A stretch of DNA of 35,868 nt from a virus (lineage: Duplodnaviria; Heunggongvirae; Uroviricota; Caudoviricetes), in the IMG/VR virus record IMGVR_UViG_3300029735_000262, positions 1 to 35,868 of that record, one strand, 5' to 3'. Position numbers: made by a program. Shown here in pieces: positions 30,001 to 35,868 of the stretch (its first letter is position 1; every line of letters begins with the position of its first letter).

Positions 30001-33000
30001 ATGCGTTAGTTTCTCCACAGTCACGACACGCCACGGCGCCCGGAGCTGCACACTCGCGGGCGTCATTACTTTCTGAAATGCAAAAAATTTTGTAGACCAG
30101 TGCTGCATGCTCCTGCAGCTTCGAAATTGAGAGGTACAGCTCGTCGTTAATTGCTGTCTTCTCATGCGGTTCCACTACACCGTCTTCAATTGCTGAACGA
30201 ATCTGTTTTGAATAACTGCCGATCTGTTCAATGACCTCCAGCAGGCGTTGGTTGATATCGGCGTTGTCCACATCCTCGACATCAGGAAGAGACACAAAGA
30301 CGCCATTTGCAGACTGCGCCACAGCGTCAGCAATGAAGTGAGTTCCACCAGCACGTTGCAAAATCATTGCCCATCCCAGCGGGAAAATCTGATCGCCATC
30401 GGCACGAAGGCGGTTAAATAATGCGTTCTCTGTTACATCCAGCCAGTCAGCAGCTTCAGCGTACCCCCCCGGCAACGCTGCGATAGTTTTTCTGACAGCT
30501 TTCACGTACCACTCAGGCTGTTTTTCTACTTTCCAGTGATGCTTACCCACGGTTCACCTCCTGTTCCTGTGGTTTAAACCCATTCTGGTTTTGGCTAGAT
30601 TGAAAACGTGCCGGATAAAGAATCTGCATTTCGCTGACTTCACCCTTAAAAAAATTGGCTAAACGTTCTGCAAGCTCGATAGATGGAATCTGCTCCAGCC
30701 TCTCAATACGACTCAACGTCGCTGGATTGACTTGAACACCCGCAGCAACATGCTGCAAAGTGAAACCATGCGCCTTACGCACATTTCGTAATGGTGATTG
30801 CATACGCCCTCCAAATATTGCGCGTTATGCATGTTATTTCACGCAATTATTTTGCGCAAGTTGATTTGCTTATCACGCAATAAAGAAATGTAATAAACGC
30901 ATGAACATAGGAAACCGAGTCAGACAACTTCGCCAAGCGAAGAACATGAAAATCGCCGATCTCGCTGAAGCGATAGGAGTAGATGCGGCGAACATCTCGC
31001 GCTTAGAAACGGGTAAGCAAAAACAATTTACCGAACAAACACTGAGTAATATTGCCAAGAGCTTAGGTGTTGATATTGCTGATCTCTTTACCTCTGCCCA
31101 CAAAAGTAATACTGTATATAAAAACAGTAATAATGAGGATGTTGCGCAGGTGAAGGATGTGTTCCGTATTGAAATGCTGGATATCAGTGCCAGTGCGGGA
31201 AATGGCCTTATCCAGGGCGGTGATGTCATTGATGTGATTCATGCCATCGAATACAGAACTGATAATGCTGTATCAATGTTCGGCGGACGACCAGCCAATC
31301 ACATCAAAGTTATCAACGTTCGTGGGGACAGTATGTGTCCAACCATTGAGCCAGGAGATCTCATCTTCGTTGATGTCAGCATCAATCAGTTTGATGGTGA
31401 TGGTATATATGTCTTTGGTTTTGATGACAAAATATACGTTAAAAGACTTCAAATGATTCCTGACAAACTGCTGGTGATTTCTGATAACCAGATTTACCGT
31501 GAATGGGGAATTACTAGCGAAAACGAACACCGATTCATGGTCTTTGGAAAGGTCTTAATCAGTCAGTCGCAAACCCTTAAGAGACATAATTAACCTCAAT
31601 ATCCCATCCATCGGCCACCGAAAGGTGGCTTTTTATTACCCATAAATTTGCATATCTCGCAAATATCACTTGCATATCTCGCAATTTAATTTTATCTTTT
31701 GTTCCAGACCAACTACAGGATTACAACAAAATCTGGTTGCAACACGGTGCATGTGTCGTAAGCAGTCAGTAAATGTCAAAAACGAACAGGCAGGACGCCC
31801 ACGAAGTAGCCGCCTGGGGCATATGAAGTCCAGGATGATTCGTTAGCAACAAAAAAGCGCCCTACAGGACGCTTAGCTCTTTAACAATCTGGTCCCCTTC
31901 AACAAGTAACTGATAACTTGAGGAGGTGTGAAATGCACAAAACAGAACCCAAAATCGTCGCGCCTGGCTACACAGATGAGGAAATTTATGAGTGGATGAC
32001 AAAGAAGCTGGCAGCTATAAACCAGCTTCGTGAAGTGCTGTCTTATCGACAGGAAACAATAGACTCCTTAAAAAAACTGGATCAGGAAATCACGGTTTTA
32101 TCACAGGATGTTACTTTAGATATTGTGCAGACAAATTAGGATCCCATTCATTTTCGTCAAAATCATCAAAGTGATGAATTTGTGATCTCCAGTCTCGATA
32201 ATCTAAAAATTTCTGGGCGGTTACGCTTATTTTATCAAGCGTGAGTTCATCCTGAATTGAAAGAAGAAGTTCATCAAATTTCATCTCATTAATCTGCTTT
32301 GGCATCCAGTGATGCTTCATCAGAATAAGGTGAACCAGAGCCTTTTTCCCATTCAACTGATTATAGGGAGTGCCGAATTTCTTCCGGTGCTCATGTAAGA
32401 CAAGGTCCAGAAGAGTAAGTAATGTTGCCCTTGATTCAACTTTGCTTATTTCGACTGATGACACTACCCCACTGATTTCAATGCCCCGATACTTTCCAAC
32501 ATTTTCACAGTGGGATTTGTACAACGTGTAGATATTACCGGACATTTCTTTTCCTTTTGCGTTGTTGGGGATAACCAGATTAACCGAATCCTTGTTGTTG
32601 GGGAATAACCAGGTCCACCTCGCCTGATGTGGCTAAAAGCAGGCACATAACAGCTAAGTATTTTTAACCAGAGAGAATCCTTAGCGTTGTGGTGAATGCG
32701 GCTCAGCGCACGCGGGTTAAGGTTGAGGCTGACAGTCGACCTTCTGTGGATACCCACCCGTCTGGTGTGCAACCTTCGCCAGGCACCGGGAGGCACCCGG
32801 CACCACAACTTTATGCTGTGTGTAGTCCCGGCGGTACCAGTTTGTACCCTTGCTTCCGGCTGGTACCGTCCTTTTTACAAAACAGAGAAGAGCATCACCG
32901 GACGACGGGCTCATAACCCAATCCATCCGGGCGGCTGCCACCGCAGGTGTTCTTCTCTGTTTTGTGGAGAAACTAATCGGCCTTGCAGGGTCGATATGAT

Positions 33001-35868
33001 GAGGAGCAGCAAAATGGCTAGCGAACGCAGTACTGATGTGCAGGCATTTATCGGGGAGCTGGACGGCGGCGTATTTGAAACCAAAATCGGCGCAGTTCTC
33101 AGTGAAGTCGCTTCCGGTGTGATGAACACGAAAACCAAAGGTAAGGTCTCACTCAACCTGGAAATCGAACCATTTGATGAGAACCGTGTGAAAATCAAAC
33201 ACAAACTCTCATATGTTCGCCCGACTAACCGCGGGAAAATTTCCGAAGAAGACACCACCGAAACGCCGATGTATGTCAATCGCGGTGGTCGCCTGACTAT
33301 TCTGCAGGAAGACCAGGGACAGTTACTGACTCTTGCCGGTGAACCTGACGGAAAACTCCGCGCAGCAGGTCGTTAATATCGTTTTTAATTAACTGATTAT
33401 TTATCTCATCACTGAATATCTTTATATAGTGAGGACTTATTATGTCTCAGAACTTAGACGCAACCGCAATTAATCAAATCCATGCCCTTATTTCTGCTCA
33501 GGGTGTTAATGAAATTATCAGTAAGATTGGTGCCGATGCTGTGGCATTGCCTGAGAATTTCCGCATTCATGATCTGGAAAAATTTAATTTAAATCGCTTC
33601 CGTTTCCGTGGTGCGCTTTCCACTGCCAGCATCGATGACTTTACCCGTTATTCTAAAGATCTTGCAGATGAAGGCACCCGCTGCTTTATCGATGCTGATA
33701 ATATGCGTGCCGTCAGTGTGCTTAACCTGGGTACTATTGATGAACCAGGTCACGCAGATAACACCGCCACACTCAAACTGAAAAAGACAGCACCGTTCTC
33801 TGCTCTGTTGTCTGTTAACGGCGAGCGTAACTCCCAGAAGTCACTGGCAGAATGGATTGAAGACTGGGCCGACTATCTTGTGGGTTTTGATGCTAATGGT
33901 GACGCTATTCAGGCAACAAAAGCAGCTGCGGCTGTCCGTAAAATCACGATTGAAGCAAACCAGACCGCTGATTTTGAAGATAATGACTTCAGCGGCAAAC
34001 GCTCCCTGATGGAGTCTGTCGAAGCGAAGACCAAAGACATTATGCCAGTGGCATTTGAATTTAAATGCGTTCCGTTTGAAGGTCTGAAAGAACGTCCGTT
34101 TAAATTACGCCTCAGTATTATCACTGGCGATCGTCCTGTACTGGTTCTGCGCATTATTCAGCTGGAGGCGGTGCAGGAAGAAATGGCTAACGAATTTCGT
34201 GATCTGCTTGTTGAGAAATTCAAGGACAGCAAAGTAGAAACCTTTATTGGTACTTTCACCGCCTGATTTCATTACTGCAAATGCCCCTGCGGGGGCATTT
34301 ATGGAAACGTAATTTACTCAATAATCGCCGGATGGTGAGGGATTCTTTTTACCAGAATTCAGCGCGGTGCAGCGCATATACGTGGAGAACAAAATGTCAT
34401 TTATTAAAACTTTTTCCGGGAAGCATTTTTATTATGACAGGATAAATAAAGACGACATCGATATTAACGATATCGCGGTTTCCCTTTCAAATATCTGTCG
34501 CTTTGCCGGTCATCTTTCGCACTTCTACAGCGTCGCCCAACATGCGGTTCTTTGCAGCCAGTTGGTGCCGCAGGAATTTGCTTTTGAAGCGTTAATGCAT
34601 GATGCAACAGAAGCGTATTGCCAGGACATTCCCGCACCACTGAAACGCCTTCTTCCTGACTATAAACAAATGGAAGAAAAAATAGACGCCGTAATCCGTG
34701 AGAAATACGGGTTACCCCCAGTTATGAGTACGCCCGTGAAATATGCCGATCTCATCATGCTGGCAACCGAACGCCGCGATCTCGGGCTTGATGATGGCTC
34801 TTTCTGGCCTGTACTGGAAGGTATCCCGGCAACAGAGATGTTCAACGTGATTCCACTGGCACCGGGCCATGCCTACGGGATGTTTATGGAACGCTTTAAC
34901 GAGTTATCGGAGTTACGCAAATGCGCATGAATGTTTTCGAAATGGAAGGGTTTCTTCGTGGGAGATGTGTACCGCGAGATCTGAAAGTAAATGAAACAGA
35001 TGCTGAATACCTGGTGCGTAAATTCGATGAGCTTGAAGCTAAATGTGCAGCACAGGAAAACAAAGTAATACCAGTGTCAACTGAACTGCCACCAGCAAAT
35101 GAAAGTGTTTTGTTATTCGATGCTAACGGAGAAGGCTGGCTAATTGGCTGGCGTTCTCTCTGGTACACCTGGGGACAAAAAGAAACCGGAGAATGGCAGT
35201 GGACATTTCAGGTCGGGGACCTTGAAAACGTCAATATCACTCACTGGGCAGTAATGCCAAAAGCACCGGAGGCTGGAGCATAATGACCACTTTTACCGAC
35301 AAAGAACTGATTAAAGAAATTAAAGAGCGTATCAGCAGCCTTGACGTGCGAGACGATATTGAGCGCCGTGCTTATGAAATCGCACTCCTATCTCTGGAAG
35401 TAGAACCAGATGAACGCGAAGCTTATGAATTATTCATGGAAAAGCGTTTCGGTGACTTAGTAGATCGTCGGAGAGCAAAAAACGGCGATAACGAATACAT
35501 GGCATGGGATATGACTCTCGGTTGGATCGTCTGGCAGCAACGAGCTGGTATCCATTTTTCAACAATGTCACAGCAAGAGGTGAAATAATGGAGCCATACA
35601 GCCTCACACTCGATGAGGCCTGTACATATCTGATAGAGCCGCTATATGGCGGTTTATTTTTGCCTGGAGAATTAAGATGACCGATACCAGCCTGATTCCT
35701 GAGAAAGAAGTGATGAACAAGCTCGGTGTTTCATCACGTCAGACAATCTGGAACTATACCAAACGGCACGGATTTCCGAAGCCAGTCAGAACCCACCCCA
35801 AATCATACCTTCGTGAAGCTGTTGAAGTGTGGATTCTTAACGGTGGCGTTAATCAGAAATGCTCCTGA

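Follow-up and report, generated by a model that had tools for sequence, protein, structure and literature searches.

Several small RNAs (sRNAs) and leaders of prophages that resemble the locus examined here have been described. STnc100 is present in 11 copies in EDL933 lysogens, where it is expressed and one copy has been confirmed by Northern blotting. EcOnc27/sRNA103, which partly overlaps STnc100, binds Hfq, and PasD, to which STnc100 is related, was found by RIL-seq, in which interacting RNAs are ligated and sequenced, with Hfq. KilS (b4833), an annotated sRNA of the K-12 Rac prophage, was also found by Hfq RIL-seq and confirmed by Northern blotting; its association with Hfq and a separate RNA species of roughly 100 nt are known from K-12 only, where yncL is a KilS partner. 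For the dicBF leader of the Qin prophage, termination and leader processing by RNases III and E have been shown experimentally: the 3' end of DicF has been attributed to termination, RNase III makes the 5' end of a 190-nt DicF species, and longer RNAs reading past DicF were not seen. Here, a 35,868-nt virus record of the Caudoviricetes (IMG/VR record IMGVR_UViG_3300029735_000262; the whole stretch is called the window) was analyzed, which is a nearly complete SfIV/SfV-like lambdoid prophage with 99.3% identity to Shigella phage SfIV over the query. The analysis centered on a block of about 470 bp on the plus strand (32546-33013), between the repressor/cargo region and yfdP. This block is probably a non-coding early-left leader from which a KilS/STnc100-type sRNA is set free through termination and processing, and which gates the genes from yfdP to xis. 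Its counterparts are the Rac leader, with kilS ahead of kilR, and the Qin leader, with dicF ahead of dicB.

A preliminary description of the window had presented the block as GC-rich, non-coding and rich in structure, and all four structural features that it listed are present. The G+C content of the block is 0.53-0.58, compared with 0.34-0.43 in the left flank, and the whole stretch 32605-33020 folds at z = -5.6 relative to shuffled sequences. The statement that no credible open reading frame (ORF) covers the block is borne out by stop codons in all six frames, by frame-breaking indels in homologues (lengths that are not a multiple of three in 6 of 8 cases against ST64B, 18 of 22 against LLS and 9 of 11 against phiES15) and by the lack of a Pfam match for ORF 32696-33013, the in-frame extension of yfdP. 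A reading frame kept in homologous prophages had been named as the observation that would speak against a non-coding block; comparison with ST64B, LLS and phiES15 revealed no conserved frame. Structure conservation, which the same description had proposed to check, was found in the form of covariation supporting, among others, the helices of a core RNA domain and of a module B (Table 1). The pseudoknotted nature of the core, the modules upstream of it and a likeness of module B to a tRNA arm had no counterpart in that description.

The core is an element that links the block to a described family. A scan with Rfam at the curated gathering thresholds found nothing in the window; the STnc100 match came from a permissive scan only, in which RF02076 matched over its full length (1-206) at 32656-32879 with 42.6 bits and E = 1.7e-7, under the gathering score of 47. 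SfV, ST64B, phiES15, phage 118970_sal3 and a Klebsiella phage have sub-threshold STnc100 matches at the equivalent place, and the match in the window contains the GUGAAU motif, the hairpin CCGGG-AGGCA-CCCGG and the closing stem of the family. Based on 33 diverse cores, RNAalifold predicted the helices P1, P2 and P5, and a covariance model built from these cores (R1; both subtypes included) detected a single copy in the window, at 32682-32813, with 80 bits and E = 4e-21. Only 6.2 bits were reached on the minus strand, and with R1 neither the PR operon nor the late operons gave a second core copy.

Covariation in the core was assessed by aligning 123 distinct homologues to R1. In this alignment, 96.2% of the cells pair, compared with 84.7% after shuffling, double changes occur in 11 of the 18 pairs, and the covariation score is 0.321 versus 0.120 for shuffled alignments; none of 500 shuffles reached the observed values, and slid controls paired at 39-49% only. 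P5, for example, covaries to CCUGG/CCAGG in Rac and Qin and to GGUGG/CCACC in LLS and a Klebsiella phage. P4 and the pseudoknot could not be aligned by MAFFT and RNAalifold, and were therefore parsed in each sequence by a script and tested by loop permutation. In nearly every sequence, 6-11 nt just 3' of P2 are complementary to the P4 loop, in at least 20 distinct versions, such as AAGGUUG/CAACCUU in the window, AAGGCUG/CAGCCUU in phiES15, CAGUUAA/UUAACUG in Klebsiella and CCAGUC/GACUGG in the S-type cores described below. Each sequence paired with its own loop over 6.40 bp on average, whereas permuted loops gave 4.49 +/- 0.13 bp (0 of 2000 permutations as high), which indicates that the core is a compact pseudoknotted domain. 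By these comparisons, the core is a divergent member of the STnc100/PasD superfamily, with the link to PasD made through the published homology of PasD and STnc100.

The distribution of such cores was examined by using the motifs GTGAAT...GCGGCTnnGCGCACGCGG and CACCGGGAGGCACCCGGCAC as queries, each of which recovered more than 120 viral contigs. The taxonomic range of the core is the Enterobacteriaceae (Escherichia, Shigella, Citrobacter, Klebsiella, Raoultella and Enterobacter), and three subtypes could be distinguished: S, which is true STnc100; A, which is that of the window; and B, which is Rac/Qin-like, with CCUGG-AGGCA-CCAGG as P5. S-type loci score 57-147 bits against RF02076 and are flanked by a PF03589 Q gene or a gene for a DNA methylase on one side and by nanS-p or holin genes on the other; a canonical sigma-70 promoter (TTGACx-17-TAnnnT) ends about 7 nt before their P1 closing stem, and a terminator usually follows. 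S-type copies (e.g., L134, L149 and L193) resemble short late-promoter-proximal transcripts and are comparable to lambda 6S RNA. In some viral contigs, STnc100-type copies are arranged in tandem, 3-5 of them at spacings of about 250-260 nt (L185 4349-5513 and 8357-8555; L146 342-1038; L154 1721-2346; L138 2321-3355); several of these arrays adjoin tRNA genes or a match to isrI. Type A and B copies occur in early-left leaders, 5' of yfdP or kil-type genes. Two of them are unannotated cores of K-12, one between kilS and kilR of Rac (66.8 bits with R1; L233 2259-2395, minus strand) and one between dicF and dicB of Qin (70.1 bits with R1; L361 1951-2086), and their closing stems of about 20 bp would suit RNase III.

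Compared with STnc100, the window shares the closing stem, GUGAAU, P2, P4, the pseudoknot that was defined here for the P4 loop, and the hairpin NNNGG-AGGCA-CCNNN, which is invariant; both RNAs are prophage-borne, and in the window a terminator also follows the core. On the other hand, P2 has the sequence GCGGC.. in the window and CCCCC.. in STnc100, and the core of the window lies in an early-left leader, not between Q/methylase and nanS-p/holin genes. It also has no abutting canonical TTGACx-17-TAnnnT promoter, a trait of the known copies and not an Rfam criterion, and it carries a KilS-type 3' end. Thus, the RNA of the window is a variant of the STnc100/PasD kind that falls below the Rfam threshold, is differently placed and is fused to a KilS-type 3' end; the early-left leader around it is conserved and consists of several modules.

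The KilS-type 3' end consists of a GU-rich stretch, UGCUGUGUGUAGUC, and an intrinsic terminator. The sequence TGCTGTGTG(T/A)AGTC is kept in K-12 KilS, LLS, phiES15, ST64B and the window, with different flanks; its only variation is the one T/A position, in ST64B, and in Rac it lies inside the annotated KilS RNA. This stretch is a candidate sRNA seed, and no complementary targets beyond chance were found within the window. The hairpin followed by CTTTTT of the preliminary description is present and extends from a perfect 9-bp stem to 13 bp, so that a hairpin and a U-run are both in place; a simple terminator scan had missed it because its loop is longer than 8 nt. The 72-nt terminator segment folds at -24.8 kcal/mol (z = -3.0), the stems covary (UACCAG/CUGGUA versus CAUCAG/CUGAUG in KilS), and of 34 distinct type A tails, 22 have a terminator-like element no more than 110 nt away. 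In view of the kept position and the covarying stems, 32814-32876 is homologous to the 3' half of KilS, the 5' half of which is replaced or interrupted by the core in the window. Besides this homologous segment, the window resembles KilS in its location in the early-left leader of a lambdoid prophage and in the U- and P0-like elements 5' of it. The two differ in the downstream gene (yfdP in the window, kilR in Rac) and in the position of the core, which in Rac follows the KilS terminator, in the kilR 5' untranslated region (UTR), and in the window lies inside the RNA before the seed. The window therefore represents a fused arrangement.

Two further modules precede the core. Module U, found 5' of type A/B cores in many loci, may form an H-type pseudoknot: its stem 2 covaries (GCCUG/CAGGC versus GCCCGG/CCGGGC in Rac-type loci), and ordinary folding gives z = -1.7. 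Support for this fold is modest because only two pair types were seen. U occurs without the core, and the core without U, in some phages. The P0 hairpin folds at z = -4.5 and covaries completely, being GAUAAGAGU/ACUCUUAUC in ST64B and AUGAAGCGCAUU/AAUGCGCUUCAU in phiES15, with further changes in sal3 and LLS. By our own mapping of the 190-nt DicF species onto the Qin locus (L361), the RNase III cut would fall in the helix equivalent to P0. The dicF-dicB leader has the same P0-type helix, a terminator-ended sRNA, a spacer of the core family and then the first downstream gene; it differs from the window in that its sRNA is DicF, with another sequence, in its subtype B core with a P1 of about 20 bp, and in having no module B. 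In LLS, the order is PL (TTGACC-17-TAGATT), U, which begins about 10 nt after the predicted PL start site, a terminator, P0, core, seed, terminator, module B and yfdP, with no cargo genes. Given this shared order, the leader of the window can be viewed as that unit, with the cargo genes as an insertion that separates PL from U.

Module B occupies the 5' UTR of yfdP. The long inverted repeat noted earlier at 32877-32965 is present, with arms that reach 25 nt at 84% complementarity; it folds at -45.5 kcal/mol (z = -7.3), and none of 200 shuffles folded as well. For 16 diverse homologues, RNAalifold predicted 32 pairs, of which 8 show compensatory changes, across all three helices. Module B is found in more than 120 IMG/VR viral contigs, and a T-run lies directly 5' of it in 122 of 124 instances. 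By analogy with the lambda N leader, which carries nutL and an RNase III hairpin, the lower stem of module B, about 20 bp without a break, would be a suitable substrate for RNase III. As possible parallels to that leader, the window has a boxA-like AGCTCTTTAACAA beside a hairpin and a long perfect stem just 5' of the ribosome-binding site (RBS) of the first gene; no boxB and no N protein were identified in it. Directly after the long stem, the sequence (G/A)UGGAGAAA is kept in nearly all module B homologues, and it may be either an RNA motif or the start of an upstream ORF of variable length. In the window, such a short ORF runs from 32964 to 32999 (GUG GAG AAA ..., 11 codons) and ends 15 nt before the yfdP start. 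A functional peptide is judged unlikely, as no Shine-Dalgarno sequence is present and the peptide after Met-Glu-Lys is not kept, with lengths of 4-46 codons; the first three codons are kept as nucleotides.

Table 1. Features of the block and of its surroundings (positions in the window)
Feature	Position	Strand	Remarks
Q gene	24654-25016		PF06530
cro-like gene			near repressor
cII-like gene			Phage_CP76 family (Pfam)
Repressor	30901-31593		S24 and HTH domains (Pfam)
Direct repeat 1	32561-32578		GTTGTTGGGGATAACCAG
Direct repeat 2	32594-32612		GTTGTTGGGGAATAACCAG
Module U	32615-32644	+	candidate H-type pseudoknot CCAC(C)-UC-GCCUG-AU-GUGG-CUAAAAG-CAGGC
P0 hairpin	32653-32685 (32653-32658 with 32680-32685)	+	GCUAAG...CUUAGC; stacked under core
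Core RNA domain	32686-32809	+	STnc100 superfamily, subtype A; 124 nt, multi-helix, pseudoknotted
Core P1	32686-32694 with 32801-32809		closing stem
Core P2	32698-32713		bulged hairpin
Core pseudoknot	32719-32725 with 32770-32776		pairs with P4 loop
Core P4	32760-32767 with 32777-32784
Core P5	32786-32800		CCGGG-AGGCA-CCCGG
GU-rich stretch	32814-32827	+	single-stranded; candidate sRNA seed
Intrinsic terminator	32830-32876	+	stem 32830-32842 with 32858-32870, then CTTTTT 32871-32876
Module B	32877-32965	+	three-way junction, lower stem ~19-20 bp; yfdP 5' UTR
Invariant arm of module B	32906-32919	+	CGGGCUCAUAACCC; as tRNA-fMet anticodon stem-loop positions 28-41
Motif after long stem	32964-32972	+	(G/A)UG-GAGAAA
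yfdP RBS and start	33001-33016	+	GAGGAG + ATG; first gene after leader
yfdP	33014-33376		3' of block; then yfdQ (DUF2303), yfdR, yfdS, yfdT and torI-type excisionase

The placement of the block on an early-left transcript is based on operator-like and promoter-like sequences. Operator-like TTGC-N7-GCAA sites were found at 30866, between cro and the repressor, and at 31648 and 31670, directly 3' of the repressor terminator (31613-31630); the identical pair TTGCATATCTCGCAA at the latter two positions matches TTGCTTATCACGCAA at 30866. Together with these sites, TTGCAT-17-TATCTT is likely to represent a PL-type promoter at about 31670-31705, which would start at about 31705 and read rightward to the block. 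With the promoter placed here, the early-left transcript includes the block, some 850 nt after the promoter, and the core is about 980 nt from PL. Approximately 170 nt after PL (31855-31887), the hairpin AGCGCCCUACAGGACGCU is directly followed by the boxA-like AGCTCTTTAACAA, which matches the rrn boxA at 12 of 13 positions. The same hairpin and boxA-like pair occurs in Klebsiella phage Kp4884-1 (L009, 1920-1950), and the pair may be a nut-like site. No N-like gene was recognized in the window, in which a 73-aa ORF has no Pfam family.

A sequence of events can be proposed for this leader. Transcripts from PL, or from a weak internal promoter, would mostly stop at 32876, and RNase trimming would yield a stable sRNA of about 200 nt, with the core as its body and UGCUGUGUGUAGUC as its base-pairing region; such an RNA would be expected to bind Hfq and to act on targets. 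The terminator would keep yfdP-yfdQ-yfdR...xis silent until RNA polymerase reads through after induction, and the long stem and tRNA-like arm of module B would act on the read-through mRNA by RNase III processing and/or control of yfdP translation. Among the roles that the preliminary description had offered for the block, that of a small regulatory RNA is supported by the STnc100 superfamily core, the KilS-homologous 32814-32876 and covariation, and that of a terminator plus structured leader by homology and covariation, with termination and processing demonstrated experimentally for the homologous Qin dicBF leader. Within the latter proposal, gating of delayed-early genes by the terminator and its being an antitermination target would be plausible, and the boxA-like site and module U are candidates for read-through elements. 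The third role, a pair of protein-binding sites, found no support for the hairpins and may apply only to the direct repeats.

Several points weigh against this leader-and-sRNA interpretation. The leader of this prophage is known here by sequence only. A promoter consensus scan found no credible sigma-70 promoter in or just 5' of the block; the hand-picked -10 elements TATTTT (32659) and CATAAC (32646) have poor -35 elements and are not kept in Klebsiella copies. With no convincing local promoter, the RNA would depend on a weak promoter or on read-through from PL across a convergent cargo gene. In addition, K-12 KilS lacks the core, so that the core-seed-terminator fusion of the window differs from the characterized KilS, and the Klebsiella type A copies have neither seed nor terminator. 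A multi-helix pseudoknot with invariant loops is also unusual for a simple base-pairing sRNA and hints at a protein or RNA polymerase partner. Finally, no antitermination factor was recognized, neither an N homologue nor a put-like RNA being found in the window.

In an alternative explanation, the core and/or U would be a cis-acting RNA that makes RNA polymerase resistant to terminators, as an analogue of HK022 put or the Bacillus eps-associated RNA (EAR), and would replace N. Besides the lack of a recognizable N homologue and the compact pseudoknotted fold with invariant loops, the positions of the elements fit such a function: they lie in early-left leaders or, for S-type copies, just after the late promoter between Q and lysis genes, U is at about +10 of PL in LLS, and terminators follow the elements, with a further terminator-like hairpin between yfdQ and yfdR. 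The authors of the LLS study likewise noted that N is absent and suggested a put-like mechanism. The leader of the window and those of HK022 and HK639 are alike in carrying structured RNA in early leaders of N-less lambdoid phages with terminators downstream, and U is as near its promoter as putL. However, there is no similarity of sequence or structure to HK022 putL or to the annotated HK639 putL-like RNA, and R1 finds nothing in either phage; membership in the put family was rejected, as these two RNAs resemble each other and neither of them resembles U or the core. Moreover, short S-type RNAs accumulate in uninduced lysogens and no read-through past DicF is seen in Qin, which suggests that the adjacent terminators are efficient. 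The tandem arrays of 3-5 copies, the separability of U and core among phages, and the distance of the core from PL in the window also argue against antitermination by these elements, which is considered unlikely. The hairpin between yfdQ and yfdR (AAAUGCCCCUGCGGGGGCAUUU, 34267-34300), inside the early-left operon, implies a further barrier to transcription there.

A second alternative concerns module B and can coexist with the release of an sRNA from the leader. Over positions 28-41 of E. coli K-12 metZ, all 14 bases of the arm CGGGCUCAUAACCC are the same; the three G-C pairs characteristic of the initiator tRNA and the loop CUCAUAA are among them. This match occurs once in the window and in none of 100 shuffles, and the arm is invariant in all module B homologues except for A/U at loop position 37, as the only invariant part of a junction whose surrounding helices vary and covary. 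Based on this likeness, module B might mimic the anticodon arm of tRNA-fMet and bind a factor that recognizes it, such as the 30S P site/initiation factor 3 (IF3), methionyl-tRNA synthetase (MetRS) or an anticodon nuclease such as enteric VapC. Through such binding, module B would adjust the translation of yfdP or the fate of the mRNA, or serve as a decoy. The VapC toxins of Shigella and Salmonella, known from plasmids, cleave tRNA-fMet in the anticodon loop, and the thrS mRNA operator is a tRNA anticodon-arm mimic, to which module B is similar in placing such an arm, here that of tRNA-fMet, within a 5' UTR. Its presence in more than 120 viral contigs and its location 49-95 nt 5' of the yfdP start are also in agreement with a function of this kind. 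Nevertheless, the likeness is limited to the anticodon arm, and the stem below the three G-C pairs is unlike tRNA; ARAGORN found no tRNA or tmRNA gene in the window, and a tRNA gene at module B was rejected because no cloverleaf was detected. The match is a comparison of bases noticed after the fact, and neither Rfam nor a literature search revealed a precedent or a described family with a tRNA-fMet anticodon-arm mimic. Such mimicry is given a low probability.

It is very improbable that the core is an aptamer that senses a ligand or signal and controls the terminator just downstream in the manner of a riboswitch. A conserved pseudoknotted domain with an intrinsic terminator within 20 nt, in 5' leaders of operons, would suit this role, but the window has no Rfam riboswitch match, and no conserved alternative antiterminator pairing was seen between P1 and the terminator. 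In addition, the core follows the terminator in Rac and Qin and does not precede it, many core copies have no terminator at all, and S-type copies behave as Hfq-bound sRNAs. Still harder to sustain is a protein-coding block, such as an N-terminal extension of yfdP (ORF 32696-33376) or small ORFs: a 226-codon open frame runs into yfdP and one phage record annotates an extended yfdP gene, but the indels, stops and missing Pfam match reported above contradict coding, the covariation tracks RNA helices, and yfdP has its own strong RBS and a length of 120 aa in the annotations of K-12, SfV and ST64B.

The gene carries the name yfdP in E. coli genomes that match closely, it belongs to no Pfam family, and its start codon is at 33014, not 33015. 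PADLOC likewise gave nothing for yfdP or its extension ORF. In the K-12 prophage CPS-53 (L235 3248-3604), the whole leader is lost and yfdP is preceded by an unrelated GATTTTGACGGGTCA-type repeat sequence; owing to this loss, K-12 data are uninformative on module B and this leader.

From PL to the leader, the window contains a convergent cargo pair (31918-32139, plus strand; 32111-32545, minus strand). Pfam and PADLOC gave no match for either gene; RefSeq names the 144-aa gene an 'ECs1072 family phage-associated protein', and a minus-strand terminator is present at 32004-32029, within the region of the pair. The two direct repeats listed earlier, of the form GTTGTTGGGG(A)ATAACCAG and 33 bp apart from start to start (32561-32612), are both exact, and 100 shuffles gave an expectation of 0 matches. 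They are flanked by the start codon of the minus-strand cargo gene (32545) on one side and by module U on the other. Loci of E. coli and Klebsiella phages in which three different minus-strand genes occur keep them beside U, and they are missing from SfV, LLS and phiES15 and wherever no such minus-strand gene exists. These repeats probably belong to the regulatory region of the divergent minus-strand gene. Recurring operator or CII sites were also considered and rejected, since the window has no extra copies above chance. As a separate observation in a related phage, an isrK RNA match (64.3 bits, above the cutoff) was found in or beside sb41 of the early-right region of ST64B (L001 21-97, minus strand).

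The pseudoknot, the cores of kilS-kilR and dicF-dicB and the tRNA-fMet arm mimic were not found in the searchable literature. STnc100-type RNAs are among the most abundant prophage transcripts of pathogenic E. coli and Salmonella. The present comparison indicates that the STnc100 family is much wider than the Rfam model captures and that the same core domain occurs in the leaders of early-left operons controlling toxic and recombination genes (kilR, dicB, and yfdP through xis), which connects STnc100/PasD, KilS, the dicF-dicB spacer and the SfV-type leader, four RNAs or loci that had been named independently. The conserved pseudoknotted core is open to testing by compensatory mutants, and the leader provides concrete elements for how N-less lambdoid phages such as SfV, ST64B and LLS pass leader terminators. 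If functional, the tRNA-fMet anticodon-arm mimic would add a new type of element to those of leaders, as a cis element of a sort not known to have been described in bacteria or phages. Attacks on translation initiation would then be sensed or withstood through the expression of early-left genes or the survival of their mRNA.

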